This document shows, piece after piece, positions 2,413-18,377 of a stretch of DNA of 43,899 nt. Every line of letters begins with the position of its first letter. Positions within the stretch are counted from its first letter, which is position 1. Under the pieces are notes generated by a model. That model did no database searches. It was not told where the DNA came from and worked only from the letters and a program-made list of their open reading frames with translations. Made by a program: the position numbers and the translations under genes. The DNA comes from Candidatus Woesearchaeota archaeon (GTDB lineage: Archaea > Nanobdellota > Nanobdellia > SCGC-AAA011-G17 > UBA489). The stretch lies in NCBI GenBank assembly GCA_964374125.1, contig CAYJXL010000002.1:1-43899 (forward strand). The letters are read 5' to 3'.

Positions 2413-3432
2413 ATGAACGAAACAATTGATCTTCTTCAGTACCTTCCAACAGACATCATAACGCAAGAAGAAAGGAAATACCCATTGCACGTACAACACG
2501 ACGAAATCTCGATAGGCCTAAGTTACCAAGCACCGTTGCATAATCAAACAGGCGAATGCGGCACGCAAGAGTTCTCCTGCACTATACCTCGCTACATAGC
2601 AAAGAATGAGCGTACCTTCGAAGTGCTCGATCTTCTGCAGGCAGAGATGGGAAAGACACAGAATGGAACCCTATCATTCTCAAATTGTGAACCGAAGATT
2701 ATCAACGCAGTTATGCGGTGGTTCGACCAAGAAGGATTGCTAGATAAAAATAAATGGCGATGGAGTACTAAGGTTAATATTAATGAACCGATAGATCAAG
2801 CCCGCAAGACCAAAATAGAGGGGGATTGCACTGACTATTGGCTTAGCAAGACGAAAGTAACAAAAGAACAAGCGTATCCTAAAAGAGTAACTTACGTAAA
2901 ACAATCACCACACAAAGAACCGCAAAACAAAGGAACGCTGGTTCTAGAGTACAGAAACAACCTCTTTAGCCAGGTTATCAAAAATTTAGTAAGGAAGGTA
3001 ACCTACGAACAGATTACAAACGAACAACCGGAGCTCATCAGAGGTTATATGCGAGGGATTATCGCTGGTGAGGCATGCGTTAATGACGACCCAAAAAGCA
3101 GGCATTTCACAGTGCATATATCTGCTACAAAGCCTGAAGAAAGAGCGATTTATAAGAACTGCTTAGAAAATATCGGCTTAGAGGCAAAGATTTATAGCAA
3201 CTACAAAGAGATGTTAATCTCCAGATTAAAAAATCTTATCCAACTATTGAATCTACGATTAATGACTCTCAGCCCACGCAAATATGCAAAATTCCTCTAC
3301 ATGATGCAAAGGTATTCCGATATAAAAGAAAAAACAGGTTACTTCATGGGGGAGAAAAAGGGCATATGGAACAAGCACCCTCAAGAGAAAATCGATAAGA
3401 TCATCGAGCTATACAAAAGTGGGATAACCTGA
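2413..3432 (+). CDS. LAGLIDADG-like (homing-endonuclease fold) protein that ends inside an HTH module
   Basis: 339 aa. 'LIRGYMRGIIAGEACVNDD...HISATKPEERAIYKNCLENIGLEAKIY..ISRLKNLIQLL' looks like a LAGLIDADG motif plus its beta-sheet scaffold. A weaker first pseudo-domain lies around 'LDLLQAEMGKTQNGTLSFSN'. The TGA at 3430-3432 cuts an HTH repeat in half. Confidence 0.55.
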   Translation: MNETIDLLQYLPTDIITQEERKYPLHVQHDEISIGLSYQAPLHNQTGECGTQEFSCTIPRYIAKNERTFEVLDLLQAEMGKTQNGTLSFSNCEPKIINAVMRWFDQEGLLDKNKWRWSTKVNINEPIDQARKTKIEGDCTDYWLSKTKVTKEQAYPKRVTYVKQSPHKEPQNKGTLVLEYRNNLFSQVIKNLVRKVTYEQITNEQPELIRGYMRGIIAGEACVNDDPKSRHFTVHISATKPEERAIYKNCLENIGLEAKIYSNYKEMLISRLKNLIQLLNLRLMTLSPRKYAKFLYMMQRYSDIKEKTGYFMGEKKGIWNKHPQEKIDKIIELYKSGIT

Positions 3433-3519
3433 ACCGAAGACATAGCAAATCATGTAGGTGTCAGTACAATCAAAGTAAGCAGAGTGCTAAGAGAAAGCAA
3501 TTTGCGTAAAAAAAATTAG
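3433..3519 (+). other. in-frame post-TGA extension encoding the recognition half of the interrupted HTH module
   Basis: In the frame of 2413, 3433-3516 reads TEDIANHVGVSTIKVSRVLRESNLRKKN and ends at TAG 3517-3519. It completes '...KIDKIIELYKSGIT' into a module matching the two HTH repeats of the next ORF. Confidence 0.5.
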
Positions 3520-3911
3520 TGAACTACAGCGAAGAAATCAAACAAAAGATCATAGCGTATATAAAAGATGATCCAACAATGTCGAACGAACAAGTTGCAA
3601 AAGTATTCAATATAAGCAGATCAGCAATACAACGAGTACGTACAAAATACCACTGTAGGAGACCACGAAATACAATTAAAACACCACAAGAAAAAGTTGA
3701 TCGTATCATTCAGATATATCGACAAAACCCAACAGCGAAACTGAAAGATATTGCGTATGAAGTTGGCGTAAGTGATAATGTCGTGTCAAACGTTCGAAAG
3801 AGATACGGTTTAACGCATCTAGGGTACATGCATATTATCGGAAATAACAATCGAAAATATAAACAACAAAATAAAAATAAACTGCTCAATAAAGATAAGT
3901 CAAAAGTTTAG
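3519..3911 (+). CDS. tandem helix-turn-helix protein (two HTH repeats)
   Basis: 130 aa with a GTG start. The repeats are 'EEIKQKIIAYIKDDPTMSNEQVAKVFNISRSAIQRVRTKY' and 'QEKVDRIIQIYRQNPTAKLKDIAYEVGVSDNVVSNVRKRYGL'. The GTG overlaps the upstream TAG by 1 nt, directly after an A8 run. Confidence 0.55.
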   Translation: MNYSEEIKQKIIAYIKDDPTMSNEQVAKVFNISRSAIQRVRTKYHCRRPRNTIKTPQEKVDRIIQIYRQNPTAKLKDIAYEVGVSDNVVSNVRKRYGLTHLGYMHIIGNNNRKYKQQNKNKLLNKDKSKV

Positions 3912-3931: not shown

Positions 3932-4336
3932 TCATCTATAAGATTTTTGTCGTGCTTTCCGCGGCTTAGAATCATTCGGTTTGTGAGGTTCGTTCACACG
4001 ACTGTCGTCCACGATAAGATGCCGATCGTAGCTCAAAAAGTCTTGTCTCAATTGCTTGTTCTTCGTAAATTCAACCAACGCTTTTGCAACACATCCTCTC
4101 GCAGCTTCCGCTTGCGCGTGCCATCCGCCGCCAAAGACATTGATGTCGACATTGATCTTCTTTGCGTAATCGCCTGCAATCTCCAAAGGTTCTTGTACCA
4201 ACAGCCGCGCCATCTTCGGCCCATACGTATCAAGCAGCTGATGGTTAATCCGAATGAACCCCTGTCCATCCCGCAACGTCGCTCTCGCTATCGCCCTCTT
4301 CCGTCGTGATGATACATGAACAATCTTAGTTGCCAT
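3932..4336 (-). CDS. rps9: 30S ribosomal protein uS9
   Basis: 'SSRRKRAIARATLRDGQGFIRINH...GGGWHAQAEAARGCVAKAL...DSRVNEPHKPN..KARQKSYR' is the canonical uS9 pattern, including the C-terminal ..SYR. Confidence 0.95.
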   Translation of the reverse strand: MATKIVHVSSRRKRAIARATLRDGQGFIRINHQLLDTYGPKMARLLVQEPLEIAGDYAKKINVDINVFGGGWHAQAEAARGCVAKALVEFTKNKQLRQDFLSYDRHLIVDDSRVNEPHKPNDSKPRKARQKSYR

Positions 4337-4685
4337 AGATTACTGGCCTCTTCATCTGTTTTTTCTCGTGCACTGCTATTGGAACTCCAGGAGTACAAAT
4401 ATCTTCGGCCATCATCACGGGGATAAACAAATAATCTTCTCTTCTTCGTCTTGTCAGGCGATACTTATTATTGACAATTCCAATCTGCCGCTGTTCATGC
4501 ATAACGTCCAAATAATGAACAATAGCGAGATTAGTAAGACTAATTCCAGCTCTTGCGGCTAACGCTTGTGCTCCACTAACAACCTCGGAAAGCGTTGGGC
4601 TTCTCCCCTCCATCCTCCGAACAGCTTGGACAGCAACTGAAATATACAGCGTCAAGTTCATTTCACGAAGATCATTCTCATCCAT
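4326..4685 (-). CDS. hypothetical protein inserted between rpl13 and rps9 (possibly a winged-helix fold)
   Basis: The ORF fills the 351-nt rpl13-rps9 gap. With Met10 (MDENDL..) as start it begins 2 nt after the rpl13 stop. It overlaps the rps9 start by 11 nt. I recognise no family. Confidence 0.45.
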   Translation of the reverse strand: MDENDLREMNLTLYISVAVQAVRRMEGRSPTLSEVVSGAQALAARAGISLTNLAIVHYLDVMHEQRQIGIVNNKYRLTRRRREDYLFIPVMMAEDICTPGVPIAVHEKKQMKRPVIYGN

Positions 4686-4687
4686 TG

Positions 4688-5110
4688 TTAATTCCTCCCC
4701 AGGTGGAAACATAATTCCTGTAATGTCATGTATTTTAAGCTTTGCGTCTTGCTGACATTCGCCCCAGCAACAGTAGCAAGCGTCTTCCCCTCAAATTCTT
4801 TTGGAACGCCGACATAGCACATAACTCGCTGCAGTGCTGTTTTGCCCTTAAATTGCCTGTACGGCAACATCCCGCGAATGACGCGCTTCAAGAACCGATG
4901 CTCCTGTCTGTAAACAAACGGCCCAGTCTTGGGCATCCCCCGCTCCAGTCGGTGCTTGTAATGATCCAAGAGCGGTCTTCTGTTCCCTGTAATGACTGCA
5001 TGTTCGCTGTTCACAATCACAATCGCATCGCCAAGCAACGCCCTCTTCGCCGCATAGCTCGCAAGCCGTCCAACAACCAAGTTCGTCGCGTCAATGATCA
5101 TATTAGCCAA
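4688..5110 (-). CDS. rpl13: 50S ribosomal protein uL13
   Basis: 'MIIDATNLVVGRLASYAAKRALLGDAIVIVNSEHAVITG...' is the typical archaeal uL13 N-terminus. 140 aa. Confidence 0.95.
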   Translation of the reverse strand: MANMIIDATNLVVGRLASYAAKRALLGDAIVIVNSEHAVITGNRRPLLDHYKHRLERGMPKTGPFVYRQEHRFLKRVIRGMLPYRQFKGKTALQRVMCYVGVPKEFEGKTLATVAGANVSKTQSLKYMTLQELCFHLGRN

Positions 5111-5465: not shown

Positions 5466-5619
5466 GGTAAAACGCTGAAGAATCATCGCTACTGGACGCG
5501 TGAGCTCGCAGCGTATCTTTTGCTTCGAATGAAAGCTTTATAAAAGCATCGATTCCTCAGCAGGCAAAAATGTATACACAAGACTGATTCCATTTAAAGT
5601 ATTTAGCATAGGGTACGTT

Positions 5620-5988
5620 TTATTCAAGTGGTATGCGCTTCAGACCGATGCGATCATAAACACGATCGGAACTAAGTATCTCATCGCCTTGCGCGAAGGC
5701 CGCATGCAATGCGTCAAAGGTATGCAGCTTGTTCTCCTGCATGAAGTGAGCCGCAAGCAATAGTTTCGTCCGATCCGCACCACGAACCTCCGCAATCTCA
5801 GTCACGTCCATAACAATACGTTCTGGATCAAGTTGCATGCGTTCTGACAAGAGAAGCATCTCGATGACGGTGACAACAGATGTCCAAAGTCTATCTCGAT
5901 GCTGTTCAAAAAGACGTTTCGCTGAACTCTTCAACCAATCAGTCGTCTTGATAAGTGCAAGGAAGAAATCAGTATCAGCATACGTCAC
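5620..5988 (-). CDS. vapC: PIN-domain ribonuclease toxin (VapC family)
   Basis: 122 aa. The acidic residues fall in PIN positions ('YADTDFF', 'VIEML', 'TFDALHAA', 'LSSD'). It overlaps the upstream AbrB-like gene by 4 nt. Confidence 0.75.
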   Translation of the reverse strand: MTYADTDFFLALIKTTDWLKSSAKRLFEQHRDRLWTSVVTVIEMLLLSERMQLDPERIVMDVTEIAEVRGADRTKLLLAAHFMQENKLHTFDALHAAFAQGDEILSSDRVYDRIGLKRIPLE

Positions 5989-6221
5989 GCTCTCACCTGG
6001 TAAAGTGCAGTCTCTCGAATCAATTTCTTAAGGCGCTTGAGAGAGAGCTTCCGTGCTTTGCCAGCGACTTCCTGAAGATCCTTTACAGGATCCTTAGGTA
6101 CAGGAAGAAGGACAATCTCCCCAGCTGCGGGTACTGCAATGAACCGATCGCCATATTTCTTGCGGAGTTCCTCTTTTAGATACAAGCGTCCTTTCGCATC
6201 GCATATAGTAGTAAATGTCAT
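5985..6221 (-). CDS. vapB: AbrB/SpoVT-type antitoxin (VapB family)
   Basis: 'ICDAKGRLYLKEELRKKYGDRFIAV..GEIVLLPV' is a swapped-hairpin AbrB-like motif. Start set at Met23 (ATG at 6221), which has 'tttatata' about 25 nt upstream. Confidence 0.7.
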   Translation of the reverse strand: MTFTTICDAKGRLYLKEELRKKYGDRFIAVPAAGEIVLLPVPKDPVKDLQEVAGKARKLSLKRLKKLIRETALYQVRA

Positions 6222-6325
6222 ACGATAGATGTAGTGGGGAAGTATATAAACTTTTCCCACCAATAACTGTTTGGGGTATTGGCTCAACTCAGCCTAAAGT
6301 ACGAGAGATCGGCAATTCGTAACCA

Positions 6326-6333
6326 TTATATAA
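6326..6333 (+). promoter_or_regulatory. TATA box (ttatataa) about 28 nt upstream of the orphan tRNA-Leu 5' half
   Basis: Position and sequence fit an archaeal tRNA promoter. The intact tRNA copy has no equivalent A/T-rich box at about -28. Confidence 0.5.
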
Positions 6334-6357
6334 TATTTGAACTGATTTGCATCACCC

Positions 6358-6404
6358 GCGGGAGTCGCATAGCCTGGTCAAGTGCGCTAGCTTGAGGGGC
6401 TAGT
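6358..6404 (+). repeat. orphan copy of the 5' 47 nt of tRNA-Leu(GAG) (att-like direct repeat)
   Basis: 6358-6404 is identical, base for base, to 9548-9594 (acceptor 5' strand, D-arm and the complete anticodon arm). Confidence 0.9.
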
Positions 6405-8742
6405 CCTTGGCAAAACCGAAGATATCATTGAATTGTTGTCCATAGTAAGCTCCGCCCAGATAGAGATTCAGTGCCATCTCTGGAGAGAAAACTGTAGATC
6501 CGGAATCACGAGCCGAAGGCAAGCGACTAACAACTTGTATCTGATGTGTAACGGGATTGTATTCTAAGATCTCATCAGTTGGACCAGATCCTGTAGTATA
6601 TCCGCCAAAGAGAAGGAATGTACCCCTCGCCGGATCGAAGAGTGCATTAAGTCCTGTTCGCCCGTTCGGCAATATTTCCGGAAGCGTGACTGCTTGCCCT
6701 GTCGCTGGTGTAAACTTAATGATGTTTAATGCAGATGTGGAACCACCGAAGAGGTACATCGACTGATCATTTGTGTTGTATGCGCCTGCACCGAACGCGA
6801 ATTCTCGTGGCAACTGCGCACTGAGCGTCCTTAAACGCTGGCTGGCAGGCCGCGCTGGATCCCACTGCTGTATCGTTTGCAGGGTGCCTCCAGGCGCATT
6901 GCCTCCAAAGACATACACATTCTGGTTAGCAGGATCAGTGATGGCAACGGCATTGCTTATGCCGCTCGGAAGGACCTCCTGCTGCAGTCTGATCTGGCTT
7001 CCAGCAGGTGCAGAAGGATTGATTTCATAGATCGACGCAAGAGGGTTATACTGGGAGTCAGAGCCGCCAAAGACAAGAATCTTATTTCCATTCCACGCTG
7101 CCGCGGCACCAGAAAAAGGTGTCGAGAATCGATCGGCGAGCATGTTAATCGGTGTGAACATATTTGTTTCCTGAAAGGCAAGTATTGTGTCAAGAGGGTT
7201 ATACTGGGAGTCAGAGCCGCCAACGAGGTAGGTTATTCGACGGTTAGGGTCTCGGACTGCTGCGCTCCGCGATATTACCGAAGGCAGCGCTTGTATATTA
7301 TATGCTTGGCCGGTCTGCGGATTGAATGCAACAATCTCAGGGTGATGGTAAGGACCACAGTCTGGTGAGCCAAGGCCGTAATTCATACCACCTGCGACAA
7401 CAAGGAGCCCTGTCACAGGATCTGCAACCGCTTTCAGCTTCCATCGTCCCTCAGGCAGTTGCCCAACCCGAACAAACCCCTGACTTGGGTTATTGGGATC
7501 AAAAGCAAGAATGCCGTTGTCGCAAAGAAAGTTTTCTCTCGGACCAGGACCGATGTTACCGCCGATGAGGTAAAATTTTCCTGTTACTGGATTAAATGCT
7601 TCCGCAGCATCGGAACGTAGTGGAATTGTTGTGAGTAATGTAAACGTTCCGCCTTGCTGTCCTCCTGGTATGAACTGATAAAGCTGACCGATCCAATTGC
7701 GAGGGCTGATATTACGATTACCGAACGCGTAGATTACCCCTGTTCGAGGATCTCGCGCTGCATTTTCAACATAAAAAGGCCCACTTGGGGGGGATACTAA
7801 CAAACGACGAATGCGCGAGCCTGGCGGAAGGTTTAGATCATACACTGTCACTCTGTTGTCAGTCGTAGACCAACCGAAAAGATATACAACATCTGCTACA
7901 GGATCGTACGTGCCAGAAATCGCTGAGTCGTAGCTCGGAAGACGATCTGGCAAAAGTATGCACTGATTGGTATCCGGATTATACTCCATGATCTGATCTC
8001 TTGGCGGATATGGCGGATCAGCAGCACTACCGCTGAAGATGTAGGCTTTACTTCTTCGTGAATCCCAAACAGCGACAGCTAGATATACCCTGTATGGACA
8101 ATGAGCGACGATGCGTGATTGAAGGTCAACAGGATTGTGGGGGTTGATCTCAACAACATTATCGACAGTGTATATCAAATGTCCGTCAATGCTATATGAG
8201 CCACCGAATATATACATAATGCCTGTCAGAGGGTCAATGACCATTGTTGATGAGAATATGCCGCGAGGAGCTGCCGGTGTTGCTGCAGGCAAAGATCCTA
8301 TGATCGTACTGACAGGATGACTATTGGTATATGCATATGGTGCAGAAATCGCAATTCCGCCCTGACCTCCAGGATCGATGGCAACAGCTTGCATATATAT
8401 AATTGGTAGCCCGCCTGGGACAGGAAAATCAAAACTACCTCCCGGCTGAAGCTGAAGAATAAGAAACTGTCCTGGACCAAGAGGTCTAACGCTTAAGATT
8501 GCGCCAGGACCGAACGCTGCAGAGAAATCTTCTCGCCATGGTTTGAAGCTGATAAGAATGTAGACGATTTGTGCTTGCGATGCAACATTCTCGACCGTGA
8601 GCTGCGCCATCTGTCCTGGAATGTTCGTGCTAATGTGAATCTTCGGAATCAAACCATTGGAACCCGGTGTTCCGATCTGCACTTGTGCAAATGTCACCGG
8701 GAGGATCATCAATATGCCCATGACGAGAGTGACGATGCGCAT
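6400..8742 (-). CDS. secreted Kelch-repeat / beta-propeller protein
   Basis: 780 aa. Signal peptide 'MRIVTLVMGILMILPVTFAQVQ'. At least 10 Kelch-like blades are recognisable ('YIFGGS','YLFGW','YLIGGN','VVAGGMNYG','YLVGGSDSQYNPL','LVFGGSDSQYNPL','VYVFGGN','MYLFGGS','LLFGGY'). Confidence 0.8.
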   Translation of the reverse strand: MRIVTLVMGILMILPVTFAQVQIGTPGSNGLIPKIHISTNIPGQMAQLTVENVASQAQIVYILISFKPWREDFSAAFGPGAILSVRPLGPGQFLILQLQPGGSFDFPVPGGLPIIYMQAVAIDPGGQGGIAISAPYAYTNSHPVSTIIGSLPAATPAAPRGIFSSTMVIDPLTGIMYIFGGSYSIDGHLIYTVDNVVEINPHNPVDLQSRIVAHCPYRVYLAVAVWDSRRSKAYIFSGSAADPPYPPRDQIMEYNPDTNQCILLPDRLPSYDSAISGTYDPVADVVYLFGWSTTDNRVTVYDLNLPPGSRIRRLLVSPPSGPFYVENAARDPRTGVIYAFGNRNISPRNWIGQLYQFIPGGQQGGTFTLLTTIPLRSDAAEAFNPVTGKFYLIGGNIGPGPRENFLCDNGILAFDPNNPSQGFVRVGQLPEGRWKLKAVADPVTGLLVVAGGMNYGLGSPDCGPYHHPEIVAFNPQTGQAYNIQALPSVISRSAAVRDPNRRITYLVGGSDSQYNPLDTILAFQETNMFTPINMLADRFSTPFSGAAAAWNGNKILVFGGSDSQYNPLASIYEINPSAPAGSQIRLQQEVLPSGISNAVAITDPANQNVYVFGGNAPGGTLQTIQQWDPARPASQRLRTLSAQLPREFAFGAGAYNTNDQSMYLFGGSTSALNIIKFTPATGQAVTLPEILPNGRTGLNALFDPARGTFLLFGGYTTGSGPTDEILEYNPVTHQIQVVSRLPSARDSGSTVFSPEMALNLYLGGAYYGQQFNDIFGFAKD

Positions 8743-8743
8743 G

Positions 8744-9049
8744 TTAGCATTTCACCATTATTCTTATCTGTTGCGGAAGTTGCGCGCATGTGATCTCATT
8801 CTCTTCGGAAAAAATTTCATGGAGCGTTACGTCCTGCGGGGGCGCACTGACTTTGGTGGCCCATTCTTCATTTCTTTCTTCCTGTTGGAGCACACGTTCT
8901 TGCTCAACAGTTTGCGGGTGGGTGATCAGCTCTTGAGCATCCTTAATGGCATATGGTTGTGTGCTCTTTGATAAAAAAAGAACAAGAGCGAAGACCCCAA
9001 TGATTAGTATTCCATAAACTATTACATTACTTTTCCTCTTTTTGACCAC
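8744..9049 (-). CDS. small single-pass membrane protein (start uncertain)
   Basis: 'KKRKSNVIVYGILIIGVFALVLFLSK' is a transmembrane segment. A GTG at 9049 avoids the overlap with the integrase fragment; the longest ORF would start at 9136. The ORF ends 1 nt before the Kelch gene start. Confidence 0.35.
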   Translation of the reverse strand: MVKKRKSNVIVYGILIIGVFALVLFLSKSTQPYAIKDAQELITHPQTVEQERVLQQEERNEEWATKVSAPPQDVTLHEIFSEENEITCAQLPQQIRIMVKC

Positions 9050-9473
9050 CGGTTTGGTTACTCCCCAGTATTTTAATACCTTTCGGTTTTTTTGGGTACA
9101 TACCCAGCTTCTGGGGGTCTGCCGCAGCATGCTCAACGTATTGAGTCCTTGGAGATTCCATGTCCTCCTGCGTCACCTCGTCAAGGTTCTTCGTCGTAAA
9201 CGTGAGGAGCGTCATGAAGTGCCCCACGTTCGAGCTAAGCCGCGCAGCCCCGATCTTCTTCCGCGCCCTGTTGTGCACGGTCTTCCCGAGCCGCGCGTCG
9301 CGGACGTATCGTGTCACGAGTTCCTTGTTCCGCTCCGTCACGTTCGGATCCTGCAGGAACCGCTCGAGCGCACGCTCAAGCAAGCGTTCACACTTCCCCA
9401 GGCGCACGTCAACTTCTTCCATAGTAATCTTTTTAAGCACCGCTCGTCCTTCACCGTACGGGTGCTCGATCAT
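9027..9473 (-). pseudogene. tyrosine-recombinase/integrase N-terminal fragment (catalytic domain missing)
   Basis: 'ERNKELVTRYVRDARLGKTVHNRARKKIGAARLSSNVGHFMTLLTFTTKNLDEVTQEDME' resembles the SAM-like N-domain of archaeal and phage integrases. I saw no R..HxxR..Y catalytic region downstream in any frame. Confidence 0.45.
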
Positions 9474-9547
9474 GCACAGCGCCCGCCTTTATCAGGATTC
9501 GCCTGTGTTGCGGTCGCCGGTCACATGATCTGGTGCATCGCCCGGTT

Positions 9548-9633
9548 GCGGGAGTCGCATAGCCTGGTCAAGTGCGCTAGCTTGAGGGGCTAGTTCCTTA
9601 GTGGATTCGTAAGTTCAAATCTTACCTCCCGCA
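9548..9633 (+). tRNA. trnL: tRNA-Leu (anticodon GAG), class II with a long variable arm
   Basis: Hand-folded. Acceptor stem: gcgggag/ctcccgc. D-stem: gcat/gtgc. Anticodon stem: ctagc/gctag with loop ttGAGgg. Variable arm: 15 nt. T-arm: gtaag-ttcaaat-cttac. Discriminator: A. CCA is not encoded. Confidence 0.9.
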
Positions 9634-9693
9634 TCTTTAGCAACGCTCAACTAAGAAGAACTACAACTGCATAGTCTTTTTATTCACGAAAGT

Positions 9694-9701
9694 TTATAAA
9701 T
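9694..9701 (+). promoter_or_regulatory. TATA box (ttataaat) for the HEPN-MNT operon
   Basis: Centred about 27 nt upstream of the ATG at 9724. Confidence 0.45.
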
Positions 9702-9723
9702 ATTACAAATCACTAGTAAGTAT

Positions 9724-10086
9724 ATGAAACAAGAAGTCCAAAACTGGTGGCAGCAAGCCAAGGACGATCTCGATGCTGCCGAATACACCTTCCGTGGTGC
9801 ACGATACAGAATAGCTGCTTTTTTATGTCAACAAGCGGTAGAAAAGGCGTTCAAAGCGCTCCTGTTGGAAAAGACAGGGATAATCAGGAAAATACACGAT
9901 TTAGTTGAGCTAGGAAAAGATCTAGATATTCCAGATCGTTTACTAGCAGAAATAAAAGAGCTTACACTTGCTTACATCTACTCAAGATACCCTGACGTAA
10001 AGCAAGAGCCAAATCTAAAAGAAAAGGTCAACCAATTTCTTAAAAGCACAAAGGAGGCTATGCAATGGGTAGAAGAAAATCTCTAA
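9724..10086 (+). CDS. HEPN-domain protein (toxin partner of MNT)
   Basis: 120 aa. 'AAEYTFRGARYRIAAFLCQQAVEKAFKALLLEK..IIRKIHDLVELG' is the typical HEPN helical pattern with the R..H..L motif. It overlaps the nucleotidyltransferase gene by 22 nt. Confidence 0.8.
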   Translation: MKQEVQNWWQQAKDDLDAAEYTFRGARYRIAAFLCQQAVEKAFKALLLEKTGIIRKIHDLVELGKDLDIPDRLLAEIKELTLAYIYSRYPDVKQEPNLKEKVNQFLKSTKEAMQWVEENL

Positions 10087-10382
10087 AAGAAAGACTGGTG
10101 AACTTCAAAAAAACAGTTAACAGGGATTTTCCAATACAGACAATGATCCTCTTTGGAAGTAGGGCAAGAGGAAAGACTGGCAGAGACAGGGACGTGGACT
10201 TAATAATTGTAAGCCCCAGATTCAAATGGCTCGATTTTTTTGAGAGAGGAGCAAAAATGTATGATTACTGGGATTTAAGAATGCCAGCCGACTTTTTGTG
10301 CTATACGCCGGAAGAATTCAAGAAATTAAGTAGACATACAACCATCGTCTCTGAAGCAATCAAAGAAGGCATCAAGATTTAA
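10065..10382 (+). CDS. minimal nucleotidyltransferase (MNT-type antitoxin)
   Basis: 'ILFGSRARGKTGRDRDVDLIIVS' matches the GSxxxG...DxD motif of the polymerase-beta-like NTase fold. 105 aa. Confidence 0.85.
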   Translation: MGRRKSLKERLVNFKKTVNRDFPIQTMILFGSRARGKTGRDRDVDLIIVSPRFKWLDFFERGAKMYDYWDLRMPADFLCYTPEEFKKLSRHTTIVSEAIKEGIKI

Positions 10383-10412
10383 AGCCCATTCAGAAAAATT
10401 CGACCAATGATA

Positions 10413-10437
10413 GTAAGTTCAAATCTTACCTCCCGCA
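10413..10437 (+). repeat. orphan copy of the 3' 25 nt of tRNA-Leu(GAG) (att-like direct repeat)
   Basis: 'gtaagttcaaatcttacctcccgca' is identical to 9609-9633 (T-arm, 3' acceptor strand and discriminator). Confidence 0.9.
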
Positions 10438-10454
10438 TAAACACATAATGAAAC

Positions 10455-11303
10455 ATGAGAACAATTAAAGCAGACTTACGGAATTATTTGAGAAGCCGAA
10501 GCGACATGTCGGTTTTTGACTTCAACGACATCATCGATAGAGCGCATAAGAAGCTAGGCAACGGCGGAATTCTGGGTGTAACAAACTATCATGACGAGCG
10601 CTACGAACAATTTGTGCAACGCCCGGGCTACGAACGCAAAAATCTTGGAAACGCGGTCTACATTCCTGAAAAAGACATGCTCATTGTCAAGGGACAAACA
10701 ATACCAACAAAGGAAGGACCACTCTGTGCCATGGGTAGCCCTTCACACAAACACGTTCCTGAGCATCTATCTCTTGAGGAAACTATCAAAGTCGTTCAAG
10801 AGCAGAATGGCATGATCATTGTGCCAGGCCCGTATCGGCTATATGGTGTAGGCGCGTTCTTGGAAAGCCACTCTCATTATCTTGAATCATGTGACGCCAT
10901 CGAGGTTTTTAATGGGCAGGGAACACTCTGGCTCCCGGGACTCTTGCAACGACATGCAAATGAACGTGCAGTGACATGGTACAAACGAATGAAACAAACA
11001 TACTCGCATCTAGGAGCAATCACCGCCTCAAACGGCAGCTCGCTGCGCGAAATCGGCAGAAATAATACGTTAATGGAAATGCCAGAGCACTATGACATAT
11101 TTCAGACAAAAGAAGATGTTATCACAGTTCTACGCTGCGCGATACGTGAGAGTACGCCTGAACGTGCTGAACGCTACAGTGCATGGGGAATGGAGTTGAT
11201 GCATTTCCTGATCGTAAAATGGGATCACAATCCGCTCAGCTACTGGTGGAAGGGAGTCCCAAATGCGCATCTCGATCCGCTATTCAGGAACGAGAGTCTG
11301 TAA
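10455..11303 (+). CDS. PHP-domain-like protein with apparently degenerate metal-ligand motifs
   Basis: The PHP motif order is preserved but the ligands are altered. 'KADLRNYLRSRSDM' stands for DLHxHS..SDG, 'GVTNYHD' for ITDHD, 'IVPGPY' for ..HP, and 'ITASNGSSLREIG' for GSDAH...iG. 'AIEVFNG' is retained. Confidence 0.4.
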   Translation: MRTIKADLRNYLRSRSDMSVFDFNDIIDRAHKKLGNGGILGVTNYHDERYEQFVQRPGYERKNLGNAVYIPEKDMLIVKGQTIPTKEGPLCAMGSPSHKHVPEHLSLEETIKVVQEQNGMIIVPGPYRLYGVGAFLESHSHYLESCDAIEVFNGQGTLWLPGLLQRHANERAVTWYKRMKQTYSHLGAITASNGSSLREIGRNNTLMEMPEHYDIFQTKEDVITVLRCAIRESTPERAERYSAWGMELMHFLIVKWDHNPLSYWWKGVPNAHLDPLFRNESL

Positions 11304-11562
11304 CCAATAAAATTTTTCAAGCCAGAAAAACCGATGATCATAGTATTTGTTGAGGGACGAGGTCAGCAAAGTAAAGGGAAATGTATCCAGCCTTATCAGA
11401 CGGACAAAATTGCTCAAGTCAAAAAATCGCTGCTCACTGCAAAGTTAACCATAGCGAAGAACAAAGAAAACACTTATAATGAGAACAGATAAAACTGCAT
11501 GAATAGAAAAGCAAGCACCGTTAGGTATCAAAGTTATTTCAATTCTATATTACATAGGATCA

Positions 11563-11940
11563 GTGATTGGGGTGATTGTCGGGCTGATGTTTCTTCTCGG
11601 AGCTGGACTTATCGCAGCCATCATACCGTCTTTACGGCTGTTCAGCTCTATATTCGCCGGCCTCGCTATTGTCATCTTTGCGTTAAGCATACTTTCATTC
11701 TTTATCGGAAGAGACCTATGGAAAGGAAAAAATTGGGCTAGAGTAGTTATTATAGTAAGTTCTGTAATTGGATTAGTGATGGCAGTTTATTTCCTCGTTG
11801 GGGGTATTACGTATCACAGTGACTGGAGAGGTTACGCGGACATTTGCAATGGTATCATTGGTATAGTAACAGACACGCTCATAGGGGGCTACCTCATGTT
11901 TAATAGCAAGGTAAAAAAATATTTTTCAAAAGACCAATAG
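11563..11940 (+). CDS. small membrane protein with 4 predicted transmembrane segments
   Basis: 125-aa ORF with a GTG start and four hydrophobic stretches of about 20-24 aa. I recognise no family. Confidence 0.5.
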   Translation: MIGVIVGLMFLLGAGLIAAIIPSLRLFSSIFAGLAIVIFALSILSFFIGRDLWKGKNWARVVIIVSSVIGLVMAVYFLVGGITYHSDWRGYADICNGIIGIVTDTLIGGYLMFNSKVKKYFSKDQ

Positions 11941-11953
11941 AAGAAATAAGGGT

Positions 11954-12733
11954 TTATTTGATTTTCTTCACCAGCTTCTCAAACTCATCCAGCTTGTCAT
12001 CAAAGACTTCCACTGCCCTTACAAGGATTTCCTTCAACGTTAATTGTCCCCATGACTCTAAATAAAAGATAAAGGTTTCCTTGCTCGCAGTCACTTCAAC
12101 GCCATTCTTTTCAAGGATACCCTCATGTGATTCCCTCCACTTGAGAACATCCTTAATCTCTAGCCCCTGTCCTTTCTGTCCCAGGACGCCAGAAGGAATC
12201 TGCTCCAGAGATTTCTTGATGTCGCTATCCTTCGTCGTTTTTAATTCAGGAGAGCCGCGATAGTAAAGCAATCCCGGCGAGAACTTCGCATGATCCTTCC
12301 CTCGTCCAAGAACAGCAACAGCCTCCAGCTTCAATTCTTGATCCTCAGCAAGCTTCACAATAGGCATTTTCTCATGCACAGGAACACAATCCTTGTCCTT
12401 GCTCTCCAGACTGCTGCTGTACACCGTGCACGGTCCCTTCGCTTTTAATGCAAAAAGCAGCTGGCAATGATTGCACCCCTTGCCATTGCACTTGCAGTCA
12501 GCCATAAAGTTGTACGACTTCAAGTCCGTCTTGATCGGTATCAGTCCCAAGCGGTGCGCGATGATCTCGTCGTAAAGCGCAGAACTATTCTTCTGAAACG
12601 AGACCTCCTCAATCGCCAGTGTCGGCACGTAATTCATCACGTATCGCCTGATCATGTTTGCGATAGCCGGCGTGATGCCCTCGAGAACGAAAACAGCTTT
12701 GTTGGCGTCTTTGTGTAAAACCATAAATTTCAT
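11954..12733 (-). CDS. rpoD: DNA-directed RNA polymerase subunit D (Rpo3)
   Basis: 'VLEGITPAIANMIRRYVMNYVPTLAIEEVSFQKNSSALYDEIIAHRLGLIPIKTD' plus the Cys cluster 'CKCNGKGCNHCQ' match archaeal RpoD. Confidence 0.9.
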   Translation of the reverse strand: MKFMVLHKDANKAVFVLEGITPAIANMIRRYVMNYVPTLAIEEVSFQKNSSALYDEIIAHRLGLIPIKTDLKSYNFMADCKCNGKGCNHCQLLFALKAKGPCTVYSSSLESKDKDCVPVHEKMPIVKLAEDQELKLEAVAVLGRGKDHAKFSPGLLYYRGSPELKTTKDSDIKKSLEQIPSGVLGQKGQGLEIKDVLKWRESHEGILEKNGVEVTASKETFIFYLESWGQLTLKEILVRAVEVFDDKLDEFEKLVKKIK

Positions 12734-12758
12734 TGTCTATCAACCCTGCCGAATGCAT

Positions 12759-13667
12759 TTATAAACGTTGCTTCGAAGCTGAAAATCCAGCAGAAGAGCC
12801 ATTTTTCCGCACGATAACTGCGTACTCATCAAGCAGATTAAAGGGAACAGAAACAGACTGCAGTCGCAAAAACCGAATAACAGATGTCATGATCTGCGAA
12901 AGCGGCCCAAAGAGAGATGCAGATTTTATAGCCAAGGTTTTCAATGATCGATGCCTCCCAAGATGTCGCAGATAAACGATCCTGTAGCCGGTATCGTGAA
13001 ACAACCGCTCAAGCGAGCTTCTCGTGAAATAATGCAAATGCTCATTGGGCTTCAGATGAAACCATCGTCGACCGAGAAAGGAAAACATCGCGCTTCCCCC
13101 ATCCGGCGTCACTAAAAATAAGACACCGTCATCCTTCAGCCAGGAACGAACCTTCATCAGCAGCTTCTTGGGTTGAGGAACATGTTCAATCAAGTCATTC
13201 ATCACAATAACGTCAAAAGATTCTTTGGGGTAAGACGCAGCAAGAACGTTGCCAATGGTGATGTGAATGCCGGAATTGTGAAAGGAGCGTCTCACTCGTG
13301 CGTTGATGTCCATGCCTTCGCACAACCATCCGCGCTCCTTGGCAAGAAACAAGAGCGTTCCAATGTTGCAACCAATATCCAATATCTTCCCCTTTCGGCC
13401 AAGCACTTGTTCAATGATCGCGAGACGCTTCCGAAATGTCTGGCGGTCAGCATCTTTTGTTTCAGCGTAGTATGAATGCGGCGAGATCTCGTCTGAATTG
13501 TACATCGCCTCAAGAACCTTGGGTTTTAGTCGCGGAGTAACATAATAAAGGCCGCACTCAGTGCATCGTACAATCGTGAATCCATCTCGTACGCAAGCAT
13601 GCGTCGCAGTATGACTGCCGCATACGCCGCAAGATACAGATTCCAGGTCATCGAAACGAATGTTCAT
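12759..13667 (-). CDS. class I SAM-dependent methyltransferase with an N-terminal double zinc ribbon
   Basis: The N-terminus has 'CGVCGS...CTECG'. Motif I is 'KILDIGCNIGTL', followed by 'DVIVMNDLIEHV'. Confidence 0.75.
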   Translation of the reverse strand: MNIRFDDLESVSCGVCGSHTATHACVRDGFTIVRCTECGLYYVTPRLKPKVLEAMYNSDEISPHSYYAETKDADRQTFRKRLAIIEQVLGRKGKILDIGCNIGTLLFLAKERGWLCEGMDINARVRRSFHNSGIHITIGNVLAASYPKESFDVIVMNDLIEHVPQPKKLLMKVRSWLKDDGVLFLVTPDGGSAMFSFLGRRWFHLKPNEHLHYFTRSSLERLFHDTGYRIVYLRHLGRHRSLKTLAIKSASLFGPLSQIMTSVIRFLRLQSVSVPFNLLDEYAVIVRKNGSSAGFSASKQRL

Positions 13668-13700
13668 GGGAGAACTATGAAAGCCATTGGTGCGATATTC

Positions 13701-16253
13701 TTAAAAAGCTTGCGTCGCCGATTTGCGCTTGAAAAGCTTGAACAGCTCAAGTCCAAAGAAGCCCGCGCTTGCGAGAAGCACAACGTACGCCCAATCCTGA
13801 ACCATTAAAGGAACAACTTTAAACGCAATATGAAGCGGCGTATAAATGACCAGCGCTTGAAGCCCTATCGAAACAAGGGCCGCGAGGTTCAACCAGCGAT
13901 TGCTAAAAAAGTTCAGCGCAAACGCTTTTTGTGATCTGCTGCTGTACGCGCGGAAAAGCTCAAAGAGAATAAGCGTTGAAAACGCAACCGTCCTCGCTTT
14001 TGGCAAGTCATCAACATTATAGTAAAAGAGGGCTAGCACAATCACAGTTCCTATGATGCCGGTAACAATAATGTTGCCAGTCATGCCGCTCGTAATGCGC
14101 TCGCGAACGCTTCTCGGTTTTCGTCGCATGACATCTTCCGCAGGAGTATCGATGCCCAATGCCAGCGCAGGCCAGCTGTCAGTCATCAAATTGACCCAAA
14201 GAAGATGAACAGCAAGGAGGGGCAATGGCAAGCCAATAATGAGAGAGACAATGATGACGCCAACCTCTACTGTGTTCGCGCACAACAGATAATCAACAAA
14301 TTTCCGGATGTTGTCATACACCACGCGTCCATTTTTAACAGCATTCACGATGGTTGCAAAGTTGTCATCAAGCAAGACCATCTCCGCAGCATCCCTGCTG
14401 ACATCAGTTCCCTTCAGCGACATCGCAACACCAACATCCGCCCGTTTCAACGCAGGTGCGTCATTGATGCCATCGCCCGTCATCGCGACAATCTCGCCAT
14501 TCGCCTGCAGTGCCTTCAGGATGCGTACTTTATGGGAAGAGCTCGTGCGCGCAAAGATGCTGCAGTCTTTCACAGCAACATGAAGCTCTTCATCAGTCAT
14601 CACATCAAGTTCTTTGCCAATAACAATCCTTCCATCGAGTCCGACTTGATGCGCAATCGCCTTCGCCGTCAGGGGATGGTCTCCAGTAATCATCATGCTT
14701 CTGATGCCAGCAAGCTTGCATAGCTCAATAGCTTCTTTCACGTTATCCTTCGGCGGATCAATCATGCCCATCAAGCCAACAAAGTGCATCTCTCCGTGCT
14801 TCTCGTACGCCATCGCCAGCACGCGCAACGCTTCCTCAGCCAGCTGCTGGTTCACCTTGAGTATCTTCTCTCGATCTTTGGGAAGCAGCCTTCGTGTTTT
14901 TCCTCCGATGTTGATATACTTGCACATGTCCAAAATAATCTCCACCGCGCCTTTGTAGTAGCTGAATCCCTTGTGAACCGTAGCCATGTACTTCTTGTCC
15001 GCATCAAAAGGAATCTCATCAACGCGCTCAAGCCGGTCAGCGCCGCCCTTCAACGCCGCATACAACAAAGCCATCTCTGTCGGATCGCCAACTGTCTTTG
15101 TCGCGTTGTTGCACGTCATAGCAATCTCCAGAAGAAGCTGAAACTCTTTTGGATCAACCCTCTCGCCATCTTTGTAAAATTCTCCATCAGCGTTATATCC
15201 ATACCCTGTCGTTTCGATAACAGAATTGTTGACGTAAATCTTGCGCACCGTCATCTCATTCTTCGTCAGTGTTCCCGTCTTGTCAGAGCAAATAACAGTA
15301 ATATCACCCAATGTCTCAATGCTCTTGAGTTTTTTCACGAGCGCATTGCTCCGAATCATCGTCTGCACCGAAAGCGCCAGGCAGATGGTCACGACCGCAG
15401 GCAGCCCCTCGGGAACAGCCGCAACCGCAAGGCTGATGGACGTCAGAAGCATCTCATAAATGCCAAGGCCTTTCAAAACGCCAATGGCAAACACAAGCGC
15501 CGCAATCAACAAAACAAGAACGCCCAAAAAACGACCGAGCTGCGCAAGCTTCACTTGCAGTGGCGTCTTTGTTTCCTTCACTTCTTGAATCAACGACGCA
15601 ATCTTGCCAACCTCTGTATCCATGCCAGTCTCAACCACGATACCCTTGCCAGTGCCGCGAACGACGATTGTGCTTGAGTACATCATATTGTTCCGTTCAG
15701 CAAGTTCAACATCCTTGTTAATGGGTCCAATTTGCTTGGTGCACGGCTGGCTTTCCCCAGTCAACGAAGCCTCGCTGGTCTGCAAATTTCGTGCTTCAAA
15801 GATGCGGATATCAGCAGGCACCTTGTCGCCAGCCTCAAGAAAAACAACGTCCCCGGGAACAAGAAGGTTAGAGGGAATCTCGCGGACAACGCCGTTGCGT
15901 ATGACCTTCGCTTTTAGCGTCGTTAATTTCTTCAAGAGTTCCACCGCACGCTCTGCTTTGTATTCCTGCACAAATCCCAAGATCGCGTCAAATACAATAA
16001 TGCCAAGAATCACATACGCATCAAGGTACTCGCGCAGAAAAAAAGAGACAAGGGCTGCAAAAAGCAGGATGTAAATGACGATCTCATTAAACTGCCGAAA
16101 GAAGATTTGTATGGGATGTATTCTTCGCTCTTCTCGAAGCTTGTTCTCCCCATGTCGCTTCAACCGCTGCTCCGCCTCAACATCAGTAAGCCCGTTGACA
16201 GAAGTGTCCTTGAGGCGAAGAACCTCTTGAACAGCAAGACTGTGATAGGTCAT
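13701..16253 (-). CDS. P-type cation-transporting ATPase (type II, Ca2+/SERCA-PacL-like)
   Basis: Signature motifs 'CSDKTGTLT', 'TGDGINDAPAL', TM4 'PEGLP', 'TGES' and 'MITGDH' are all present. 850 aa. Confidence 0.9.
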   Translation of the reverse strand: MTYHSLAVQEVLRLKDTSVNGLTDVEAEQRLKRHGENKLREERRIHPIQIFFRQFNEIVIYILLFAALVSFFLREYLDAYVILGIIVFDAILGFVQEYKAERAVELLKKLTTLKAKVIRNGVVREIPSNLLVPGDVVFLEAGDKVPADIRIFEARNLQTSEASLTGESQPCTKQIGPINKDVELAERNNMMYSSTIVVRGTGKGIVVETGMDTEVGKIASLIQEVKETKTPLQVKLAQLGRFLGVLVLLIAALVFAIGVLKGLGIYEMLLTSISLAVAAVPEGLPAVVTICLALSVQTMIRSNALVKKLKSIETLGDITVICSDKTGTLTKNEMTVRKIYVNNSVIETTGYGYNADGEFYKDGERVDPKEFQLLLEIAMTCNNATKTVGDPTEMALLYAALKGGADRLERVDEIPFDADKKYMATVHKGFSYYKGAVEIILDMCKYINIGGKTRRLLPKDREKILKVNQQLAEEALRVLAMAYEKHGEMHFVGLMGMIDPPKDNVKEAIELCKLAGIRSMMITGDHPLTAKAIAHQVGLDGRIVIGKELDVMTDEELHVAVKDCSIFARTSSSHKVRILKALQANGEIVAMTGDGINDAPALKRADVGVAMSLKGTDVSRDAAEMVLLDDNFATIVNAVKNGRVVYDNIRKFVDYLLCANTVEVGVIIVSLIIGLPLPLLAVHLLWVNLMTDSWPALALGIDTPAEDVMRRKPRSVRERITSGMTGNIIVTGIIGTVIVLALFYYNVDDLPKARTVAFSTLILFELFRAYSSRSQKAFALNFFSNRWLNLAALVSIGLQALVIYTPLHIAFKVVPLMVQDWAYVVLLASAGFFGLELFKLFKRKSATQAF

Positions 16254-16301
16254 TGCAATATCGAGGCAGAATGAACTTTATATAATTAACGTTAGGCGTA
16301 A

Positions 16302-16315
16302 TTTTCGGGGGCGCG
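16302..16315. repeat. left arm of the inverted repeat flanking the AT-rich methyltransferase cassette
   Basis: 'ttttcgggggcgcg' is the perfect reverse complement of 17115-17128. The adjacent 'gttaggcgt' (16291-16299) pairs with 17179-17187. Confidence 0.8.
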
Positions 16316-16361
16316 ACTTTTTCTAGGAAATTTTATAAACATCAGAATAATTACTATAACT

Positions 16362-17108
16362 ATGACTGTGTATAATGAACCACTTTACTATGAAATTGCA
16401 TTTAGCTTTGTTGATGCCAAAAAACAGGTAGATTTGTTTGAGAACTTTATTAAAGAATATAGCAAAATAAGAGTAAAAAGAGTTCTGGATATTGCTTGTG
16501 GTACAAGTCTACAATTAAGAGAAATGGCTAAAAGAAGTTATGAAGCAATTGGCTTGGATTTGAGTTCACAAATGTTGGATTATCTAAAACAAAAAACCGA
16601 AGAAGAAGGAATAGAAGTAGACACGATTAAAGCAGATATGACAAAATTCAATCTAAAAGAGAAAGTTGATTTTGTTTTTATAATGATGGGTTCTTTTAGA
16701 TTTAAAAACAATAAAGAGCTTTTAAAACATCTTGATTGTGTTTCTAATTCCCTTAAAAAAGGTGGGTTATATCTTATTGAAAATATGGAATTAAATTGGC
16801 TAAGTTTTAAGCCTCAAAGTTGGATTATGAGGAGAGACGGAATTGAAGTAAAAACAACTTACAAATTAGAGCAAAAAGATCCACTTTCTCAAATATCTGA
16901 AGAAAACATAACCCTAGAAGTGAATGATCATGGGAAAAAATTAAAATTTGTTGAAAAAAGAATCACGAAACACGTTTATCCTCAAGAATTTCTGACTCTT
17001 GTTAAACTGAATAATAGATTTGAATTTCTTGGTTGGTTTGAGCGTTTCAAGTTTAAGAAATTAAAGAAAGGAAGTATGGATAATATTGTTCTTTTGCGTA
17101 AAAAATAA
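16362..17108 (+). CDS. class I SAM-dependent methyltransferase, compositionally foreign (AT-rich)
   Basis: Motif I is 'VLDIACGTSLQL', followed by 'GLDLSSQML' and 'DFVFIM'. The first 60 nt are about 32% G+C, against about 55% in a 60-nt sample of the neighbouring ATPase gene. The protein is rich in Lys, Asn, Ile and Phe. Confidence 0.8.
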   Translation: MTVYNEPLYYEIAFSFVDAKKQVDLFENFIKEYSKIRVKRVLDIACGTSLQLREMAKRSYEAIGLDLSSQMLDYLKQKTEEEGIEVDTIKADMTKFNLKEKVDFVFIMMGSFRFKNNKELLKHLDCVSNSLKKGGLYLIENMELNWLSFKPQSWIMRRDGIEVKTTYKLEQKDPLSQISEENITLEVNDHGKKLKFVEKRITKHVYPQEFLTLVKLNNRFEFLGWFERFKFKKLKKGSMDNIVLLRKK

Positions 17109-17114
17109 TTATGA

Positions 17115-17128
17115 CGCGCCCCCGAAAA
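17115..17128. repeat. right arm of the inverted repeat flanking the methyltransferase cassette
   Basis: 'cgcgcccccgaaaa' is the reverse complement of 16302-16315. The second segment 'acgcctaac' lies at 17179-17187, after a 50-nt spacer. Confidence 0.8.
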
Positions 17129-17188
17129 CTTCTCCGCTTCGCTCCGACCACTCCCTGCAGGCTTTCACTTTGTTCAGGACGCCTAACA

Positions 17189-17256
17189 GCGATTAAGAGG
17201 GAAAATCCTGCGAATTTTCCCCAAATTTTTGCTTCGCAAAAACATCGCTTAATCGC
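17189..17256. other. structured intergenic element (outer stem plus two hairpins), possibly a bidirectional terminator
   Basis: The outer 9-bp stem is gcgattaag/cttaatcgc. Hairpin 1 is gggaaaat-cctgcga-attttccc (17199-17221). Hairpin 2 is tttttgc-ttc-gcaaaaa (17226-17242), with T5 runs on both strands. It sits between convergent genes. Confidence 0.35.
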
Positions 17257-17268
17257 GATGTTAACGAA

Positions 17269-17988: not shown

Positions 17989-17990
17989 AC

Positions 17991-18377
17991 CTATTGCACC
18001 TTCACAGGCATTGGACAGCCGCTTTTTGCTGCAAGCTGCTCAAACGTTGGCACACCAACAAGCCAGTTATCCTTATTGGAGTCGTCATTGAAGATGAATG
18101 TCGCATACTTGTCAATGCCTTTCTGAAGACAAAGCTCAGATTGCTCGTTCTCACCCTTCGGATCGCATTCAACATAAGTAAGATACTGAAAGGAACTGCC
18201 AAAATTCTTCTTGACCTGGGCGCACTTTGGGCACCAGAATGCGCCATACTCGACGCCACCATTTGCTGTAATGCACTTCGCCAATACATCTACTGATTCC
18301 CTTGTATATTTCGGTGCATTCGAGCATGCAGCTAAAACAACGGAAAGAGCCAAAAACGCAATGAAAATTCCTTTCAC
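17991..18377 (-). CDS. thioredoxin-like lipoprotein (VKOR-partner type)
   Basis: Lipobox-like 'VVLAAC'. 'YGAFWCPKCAQVKKNFG' resembles the Trx domains found fused to bacterial VKOR homologues. It overlaps the VKOR gene by 4 nt. Confidence 0.7.
   Translation of the reverse strand: MKGIFIAFLALSVVLAACSNAPKYTRESVDVLAKCITANGGVEYGAFWCPKCAQVKKNFGSSFQYLTYVECDPKGENEQSELCLQKGIDKYATFIFNDDSNKDNWLVGVPTFEQLAAKSGCPMPVKVQ

Follow-up and report, generated by a model that had tools for sequence, protein, structure and literature searches.

How does a transfer RNA gene come to be parted from its own promoter by 3.2 kb of other DNA and still look like a working gene? The question is raised by a 43,899-nt stretch (hereafter, the window) of contig CAYJXL010000002.1, from an archaeon labelled Candidatus Woesearchaeota. 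An earlier note had pointed out that the first 47 nt of an intact tRNA-Leu(GAG) gene recur upstream of it in the same orientation, that three open reading frames (ORFs) on the minus strand lie between the two copies, and that a TATA box precedes the orphan copy, with GC-rich DNA at the equivalent site before the intact gene. It read this as the attL/attR outcome of a now decayed element that carried a copy of the tRNA 5′ half, and predicted that relatives would show insertion polymorphism. Our analysis, in which the repeats, an integrase stub and empty sites in related genomes all agree with that outcome, makes it very probable that the window holds a decayed 3.2-kb integrated element in the 5′ half of tRNA-Leu(GAG), with the promoter left on the orphan fragment. 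The features that matter for the argument are as follows, L096 and L003 being loci of relatives described further below.

6326 to 6357, plus strand: predicted native tRNA-Leu promoter (TTATATAA, 6326-6333) with a 24-nt leader, assigned by orthology to the DNA upstream of the L096 tRNA; the leader motif is also found in L003
6358 to 6404, plus strand: orphan 5′ half of tRNA-Leu(GAG), attL, with 47/47 identity to 9548-9594
6400 to 8742, minus strand: Kelch/beta-propeller protein of 780 amino acids with a signal-peptide-like N-terminus, matching Pfam Kelch families down to 8e-26
8744 to 9136, minus strand: small protein with an N-terminal hydrophobic helix (VIVYGILIIGVFALVLFLS), from the ORF list; the Logan gene call has 101 amino acids
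9153 to 9422, minus strand: tyrosine-recombinase remnant, the N-terminal ~90 residues, within the listed ORF 9027-9473 (HMMER and tblastn)
9423 to 9547, no strand assigned: putative element-derived DNA separating the integrase start from the tRNA; it contains a TATA-like TTTATC (9488-9493), a GC-rich hairpin (9510-9541) and a leader-like stretch (9522-9547)
9548 to 9633, plus strand: reconstituted, functional tRNA-Leu(GAG) (ARAGORN, Rfam), comprising attR (9548-9594) and one copy of a 3′ repeat (9609-9634)

The tRNA-Leu(GAG) gene is the single tRNA of the window (plus strand; 50.3 bits; called ends vary, 9547/8 to 9633/5) and is 98.9% identical to the gene of another relative, L097. Its nucleotides 1-47, which take in the 5′ strand of the acceptor stem, the D arm, the entire anticodon arm and one further nucleotide, form an exact direct repeat with 6358-6404, a match found in none of 100 shuffles, and the repeat thus ends one base past the anticodon stem. 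Allowing one 4-nt and one 1-nt gap widens the similarity to 6348-6409 against 9534-9600. Neither ARAGORN nor Rfam calls a tRNA at the orphan half, and the region beginning there folds no better than shuffled sequence (z-score 0.11, against -3.7 for the cloverleaf of the intact gene). No further tRNA fragments were found in the window besides this 47-nt 5′ repeat and a 26-nt 3′ repeat, to which we return. We also considered a split tRNA of the type found in Nanoarchaeum, where separate genes for the 5′ and 3′ halves, split after position 37, carry complementary extensions and an intact gene is absent. This reading was rejected, as an intact gene is present, the orphan half reaches one base beyond the anticodon stem, and its fold z-score is 0.11.

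What lies between the two copies? The ORF nearest the tRNA (9027-9473, 148 codons) had been taken for the start of a tyrosine recombinase, its first ~110 residues resembling the N-domain. It has no Pfam, PHROG or NCBIfam match, and a word-indexed protein search returned only the ORF itself, on the source contig and two Logan contigs. Its family emerged solely from a subsequent exhaustive HMMER scan of 1.84 billion representatives, which yielded 82 relatives. Residues ~20-107 of the stub align to residues ~1-90 of proteins of ~400 amino acids, with 39-52% identity to the N-terminal ~90 residues of two of these (P0002 and P0013). All 10 of the long homologues scanned match the phage integrase family PF00589 (9 of 10 above the Pfam cutoff, mostly over residues ~165-339), and an alignment of 20 members contains the catalytic set R-K-H-R-W-Y, with R195, K230, R305, W328 and Y338 invariant and H302 nearly so. 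By homology, then, the ORF is the N-terminal quarter of a tyrosine recombinase: the similarity proposed earlier is real and confined to the N-terminal part, with the homologous portion now placed at residues ~20-107. Its start had been put 75 bp from the tRNA, which is correct for the listed ORF; the likely true start is the ATG at 9420-9422 (MEEVDV..., which fits the N-termini of the family), 126 bp from the tRNA.

The earlier note had seen no catalytic domain, and none is found: tblastn of 25 full-length homologues against the window gave homology solely from 9422 down to 9153, with no match to the catalytic domain (R-K-H-R-H/W-Y) in any frame. The element is therefore defective. Decay appears to be common in this integrase family, judging from several database relatives that are similar wrecks; P0003 and P0007 diverge from the family after ~77-100 amino acids, and P0011 is internally deleted. 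Could the stub instead be a DNA-binding accessory protein of a minimal element that is moved by a helper integrase encoded elsewhere? The two att copies are still 100% identical, the stub ORF stays open for 148 codons, many of its database relatives are likewise short (94-190 amino acids), and the cassette on the other side of the tRNA, described below, also has repeats without an integrase. Against this, the short relatives that we inspected, the three just named, look like independent wrecks, tblastn finds no helper integrase in the 44-kb window, and the tail of the stub (9027-9152, the last ~40 codons) has no homology to anything. We regard a helper-driven element as improbable and an integrase remnant as the better account of the stub.

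The integrase family itself is little related to annotated proteins, with only 20-29% identity to haloarchaeal plasmid integrases and to those of Geoglobus pleomorphic virus 1 and a Methanomicrobiales tailed virus. Relatives are encoded on 452 metagenome stretches, and there is no match in IMG/VR viral contigs. One family member (L026, a 496-kb contig) sits directly downstream of a tRNA-Leu(CAA), and a 14-nt repeat of the tRNA 3′ end occurs 8.8 kb away, so the family does integrate into tRNA genes. The L026 interval 9839-18742 probably represents such an element, integrated in the ordinary 3′-end orientation and with its boundaries preserved.

If an element entered this tRNA gene, relatives should retain the uninterrupted site. 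Relatives were chosen via homologues of RpoD (window 11954-12733) and contig look-ups; a scan of GTDB genomes based on L18e had returned distant archaea only (at most 52% identity), and the useful relatives came from RpoD. This protein places the host among DPANN archaea that the sources label Woesearchaeota or Nanoarchaeota, with 80% identity to the RpoD of L096 and L097, 67-68% to that of L099, L104 and L105, and 60% to that of L003. The uninterrupted genes and the native flanks of the window are these.

L096, 7493 to 7578: uninterrupted tRNA-Leu(GAG), whose 50 upstream nucleotides, TTATATAA and TGAACTGATTTGC among them, match those ahead of the orphan half
L097, 2986 to 3073: uninterrupted tRNA-Leu(GAG) with its own TTTATAAA box
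L003, 7067 to 7150: uninterrupted tRNA-Leu(GAG), adjoined by vapBC homologues that point away from it; leader motif AACTGATGTGCATCAC kept
Window, 5620 to 6287, minus strand: vapC (5620-5988; PIN domain, Pfam 3e-7) and a vapB-like gene (5985-6287), the native left flank outside the element
Window, 10455 to 11303, plus strand: gene for a protein of 282 amino acids, the native right flank, with ~80% amino-acid identity in L096 and L097

The integrase stub, the small putative membrane protein and the Kelch gene are all absent from the L096, L097 and L003 loci by tblastn, and the Kelch gene is absent from L099 as well. The insertion polymorphism that had been anticipated thus exists, and the predicted empty site, with vapBC contiguous to tRNA-Leu, was found in L003, where the two vapBC homologues share 70% and 57% amino-acid identity with the window pair. 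The 50 nt ahead of the orphan half, which contain TTATATAA and the leader AACTGATTTGC, have an orthologous counterpart upstream of the L096 tRNA (89% over 101 nt, including the tRNA part). This orthology in L096 and L003, together with the absence of the cargo, argues that the native promoter is the one on the orphan half and that everything from 6405 to 9547 is insertion.

The same loci bear on whether a local duplication or rearrangement, with no site-specific integration at all, might have left a partial tRNA as a by-product of inverting the tRNA block relative to rpoD and L18e. An inversion did take place in some lineages, since the tRNA is co-oriented with rpoD/L18e in L099, L104, L105 and L003 and inverted in the window, L096 and L097. 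However, L096 and L097 share the inversion and have neither orphan half nor insert, the repeat ends one base beyond the anticodon stem, a classical recombinase sublocation, and a fragment of an integrase gene adjoins attR. Rearrangement without integration is accordingly an extremely unlikely origin for the repeat.

Under integration, the layout would be reached as follows. A circular element with a classical tyrosine recombinase, its gene unsplit by integration, would have carried as attP the first ~47 nt of tRNA-Leu(GAG) together with ~20 nt resembling its leader, and entered the chromosomal gene by recombination, with a crossover that we would most likely place at the anticodon stem-loop. 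The left junction would then read native promoter, 5′ half (attL, 6358-6404) and element, and the right junction element, 5′ half (attR, 9548-9594) and native 3′ half, giving an intact tRNA with element-derived DNA upstream; the integrase N-domain homology adjoins this attR, 126 bp away. The integrase would later have lost everything beyond about codon 90-107, an order of events that we suppose from the remains, to leave a fixed 3.2-kb remnant comprising the integrase stub, a small putative membrane protein and a secreted Kelch protein.

The DNA ahead of the two copies is consistent with this exchange of upstream regions. The TATA box TTATATAA, which the earlier note had seen, lies 24 nt ahead of the orphan half; the window has 4 copies of this octamer where 0.42 would be expected. 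Upstream of the intact gene, 9510-9547 is GC-rich and has no TATA; the position that corresponds to the TATA box reads GTCGCCGGTCAC, a sequence unrelated to the native one. Thus, both halves of the earlier proposal, that the native promoter stays with the orphan half and that the functional tRNA was rebuilt with element-derived DNA upstream, are borne out by the comparison with L096, whose intact gene has the orthologous upstream region. The upstream DNA of the working gene is still leader-like, with ATGATCTGGTGCATCGCC plus CGGTT, and these last bases agree with the L097 leader and not with the native leader of the window, which suggests that the attP copy derived from a related tRNA-Leu allele.

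From where, then, would the rebuilt tRNA be transcribed? Read-through from the native promoter 3.2 kb upstream should end before the tRNA, as runs of T occur between them at 9039, 9087 and 9430, and the integrase gene is directed away from the tRNA, which cannot then be read from the integrase promoter as in the Thermococcales element pTN3. The promoter of the rebuilt gene, if the gene is expressed, must presumably lie within the element DNA at 9423-9547. This interval has no TATA box 24-32 nt upstream of the tRNA, and its sole TATA-like motif is TTTATC (9488-9493). Were that motif the promoter, the transcript would carry a leader of ~30 nt with a stable hairpin (9510-9541) and need processing at its 5′ end. 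This hairpin, imperfect and GC-rich, lies just upstream of the working tRNA in the putative element-derived DNA (a fold that includes it has z = -2.9), and may be either an arm site of the recombinase or a structural part of the leader. The stranded native promoter is intact in sequence and conserved, and no run of five T follows it for 2.6 kb, so that it may drive a 2.6-kb RNA antisense to the gene of the Kelch surface protein. We infer from sequence both that the orphan promoter still fires and that transcription of the rebuilt tRNA begins in element DNA.

The two remaining genes of the insert are as the earlier note described them: a small membrane protein, to judge from its obvious hydrophobic helix, and a protein of 780 amino acids with a signal peptide and Kelch/beta-propeller repeats, as the Pfam matches indicate. 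The small protein probably starts at the GTG at 9049 (101 amino acids), with a TATA-like ATTAAAATA ~30 nt upstream of that codon and ~60 nt past the end of the integrase homology (~9153). The Kelch gene follows it directly and ends at a TAG stop codon (6400-6402) inside the orphan-half repeat. The word "decayed" therefore applies to the element in part: the integrase is truncated, whereas the membrane-protein/Kelch pair seems complete, with a TATA-like element of its own. A homologous pair occurs at another locus, L102 (3-4465), where the Kelch homologue is 61% identical with the same terminal residues KD*, and is preceded by an ORF of 110 amino acids with a hydrophobic N-terminus, to which the small ORF has weak C-terminal similarity. 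We considered L102 as an intact copy of the element and rejected it, as its upstream gene encodes topoisomerase VI subunit A; the pair is flanked there by that gene and by one for an AbiEii toxin, and has no integrase in its vicinity. Its presence in such an ordinary chromosomal context points to the two-gene module as a mobile or island-prone unit in its own right.

Several observations weigh against reading the insert as an integrated element. The L102 copy without an integrase makes it uncertain whether the pair was original cargo or later replaced the content of the element, and in its GC content the insert (49.8%) stands only slightly apart from the window as a whole (46.4%). Neither an intact copy of the element nor a free attP form was found, and the 47-mer has no match in viral contigs. 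Among 80 metagenome integrase loci none carries this tRNA-Leu sequence, and only a handful have an adjacent tRNA of any kind, in mixed orientations; these loci lend no support to 5′-half targeting as a property of the whole family. The junctions themselves are supported by one assembled contig, and two independent Logan assemblies (k = 31), 100% identical to it, break in the repeat or at its end (L014 at 9577, L015 at 9594).

This last point raises the possibility of an assembly chimera, in which an unoccupied tRNA-Leu site and a 3.2-kb circle bearing attP, separate in the organism, were joined through the 47-nt repeat. The Logan contigs, derived from two further runs, break off after 30 nt of the repeat in one case and precisely at its last base in the other, and are thus compatible with either path. 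Yet a circle of 3.2 kb whose integrase is truncated and which lacks a replication gene is an implausible replicon, and a 47-nt repeat is shorter than ordinary reads and should be resolved wherever longer k-mers were used for assembly. We consider a chimera very unlikely; even if there were one, the biology would be unchanged, as attP would still correspond to the tRNA 5′ half. An integrated, decayed element thus remains our preferred explanation.

How unusual is such an insertion? A tyrosine-recombinase crossover at the anticodon stem-loop is the standard mechanism for repeat boundaries of this kind (PMC8371274). In ordinary tRNA-integrating elements (the sublocation classes of Williams 2002, as summarized in PMC8371274) it is the 3′ part of the gene that is duplicated, and the working copy keeps its native promoter. 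Recombination with the 5′-distal part is "considerably less frequent" according to PMC6563490. The window resembles ordinary tRNA-integrating elements, as those accounts portray them, in having direct repeats with one copy in the tRNA, boundaries at the anticodon arm and the T arm, an integrase next to att, and decay into fixed islands that carry toxin-antitoxin genes. The usual 3′ geometry fits the L026 element and the cassette described below, not the 3.2-kb element.

The closest known parallel is pTN3/TKV4 of Thermococcales. pTN3 likewise enters a tRNA-Leu; the shared identity there is 41 bp and the minimal site Leu2-44 (Cossu et al. 2017; PMC5495485). A 2021 review calls integrases of this type "unique in archaea" for their use of the 5′ half, the tRNA being read thereafter from the promoter of the integrase (PMC8371274). 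In both systems attB is the 5′ half of a tRNA-Leu including the anticodon stem-loop (41 bp there, 47 nt here), and in both the rebuilt intact tRNA is parted from its original promoter, which stays on the orphan half. Int-pTN3, however, is a "suicidal" integrase of the SSV type, whose attP lies within the int ORF, which integration thus divides into int(N) and int(C) (PMC5495485, PMC8371274). Here the int start lies 126 bp outside att and the gene is directed away from it, no int(C) follows attL on the plus strand, and the truncation point (~9153) is not at the att site; an SSV-type split integrase was rejected on gene orientation and the lack of int(C). Moreover, int (minus strand) and tRNA (plus strand) are divergent here, whereas the pTN3 tRNA is co-directional with int and read from its promoter, and the host is a DPANN archaeon rather than a hyperthermophilic euryarchaeon. 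A tblastn search of P0002 against PLSDB and INPHARED gave no Thermococcus match, a result that bears on collections in which the presence of pTN3 is unconfirmed and that did not include a comparison with the Int-pTN3 sequence itself.

Two further 5′-distal integrations are cited in PMC6563490: CalSub-E1, in a tRNA-Ser of Ca. Caldiarchaeum, and a bacterial case of Zhao & Williams 2002. As summarized there, they share with our element recombination with the 5′ part of a tRNA and reversal of the usual orientation, and differ from it in host, tRNA and integrase. The 3.2-kb element is, in our assessment, a tRNA-integrated tyrosine-recombinase element of the rare 5′-half type and not a member of the pTN3 family. 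Its layout is rare but already known from pTN3/TKV4 and CalSub-E1; the mechanism is ordinary, the geometry rare and the host under-studied.

The same tRNA gene has been entered from its other end, which the earlier note had not picked up. Two features were added by this analysis.

9635 to 10412, plus strand: predicted toxin-antitoxin pair of a HEPN gene (9724-10086) and an MNT nucleotidyltransferase gene (10065-10382), without an integrase
10413 to 10438, plus strand: orphan 3′ tRNA fragment with 26/26 identity to 9609-9634, followed by the native downstream flank, orthologous to L097

The 26-nt repeat (9609-9634 and 10413-10438) comprises the T arm, the 3′ strand of the acceptor stem, the discriminator base and one further nucleotide. 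The two genes that it brackets overlap by 22 nt (10065-10086) and match PF05168 (HEPN, 2e-27) and PF01909 (NTP_transf_2, 2e-11) in Pfam. L097 is again an empty site, in which the tRNA 3′ end abuts the start of the gene for the 282-residue protein and the cassette is absent. L096 has the MNT gene (91% amino-acid identity), a different partner ORF, and an orphan fragment cut to ~3 bases. The MNT gene in L096 and the absence of the cassette from L097 indicate that the cassette would have entered before the window and L096 lineages split, independently of the 3.2-kb element, which would have arrived later and in the window lineage only. The cassette, at the T-arm/3′ end, has the usual geometry, with a 3′ repeat and the native promoter kept, in contrast to the reversed geometry of the 3.2-kb element. 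On this evidence the tRNA-Leu(GAG) gene is occupied on both sides.

These insertions fall within an interval between rpoD and L18e that is hypervariable, from 740 bp in L105 to ~6.5 kb in the window (5500-11950), where it holds three toxin-antitoxin-type modules. Its accessory genes differ in each relative and include an HD-domain gene, pairs of small ORFs, vapBC and HEPN/MNT. The tRNA-Leu(GAG) genes of L099 (7177-7318), L104 (6295-6377) and L105 (3767-3865) have a 13-nt intron at 37/38, and that of L099, which ARAGORN missed, has an additional ~43-nt intron in the T loop. The two positions coincide with the sublocations at which the window has been invaded. Accessory DNA adjoins each of the four alleles that lack an intron (window, L096, L097 and L003), and the intron-bearing L105 has a minimal, uninvaded interval. 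The comparison takes in seven loci from about three clades and is only a lead. A proposal that tRNA-Leu(GAG) is a clade-wide integration hotspot, at both anticodon and T arms, from which introns protect the gene, linked to the possible antisense Kelch RNA, is at present speculative and, taken as a whole, unlikely to be right.

Some other features of the window may be mentioned. The vapB-like gene probably starts at the ATG at 6219-6221, and a palindrome, AGTGGGGAA-GTATATAAAC-TTTTCCCACC (6232-6262), lies over a TATA box upstream of this start and is kept in L003 (~6915-6945); it is probably the VapB operator. Just past the S9 gene, the stretch 2413-3911 has low GC (37-41%) and holds an ORF of 339 amino acids with a borderline LAGLIDADG_3 match and a helix-turn-helix protein of 130 amino acids with transposase- or terminase-like matches; it may be another insertion, at the expected position of rpoN. 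An unknown ORF of 128 amino acids (4326-4712) separates the L13 and S9 genes, and L097 and L099 likewise have one or two unknown ORFs between L13 and S9 in the ribosomal-protein cluster. Finally, GC drops sharply to 34-35% at 16000-17500, around a methyltransferase gene (16362-17108), and one of the four TTATATAA octamers lies there, at 16278.

The element extends the 5′-half geometry to a classical, non-split integrase of an uncharacterised archaeal family in a DPANN archaeon. It also offers a clean natural example of an essential-looking tRNA parted from its promoter, in which orthologous empty sites reveal the native side, and carries a practical warning, as an annotator would put the tRNA promoter 3.2 kb from the working gene. 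The variable rpoD-L18e interval should be useful for studying gene flow in reduced symbiont genomes. If the association between introns and uninvaded sites were to hold across many genomes, it would provide a natural test of whether tRNA introns defend their genes against integrating elements.

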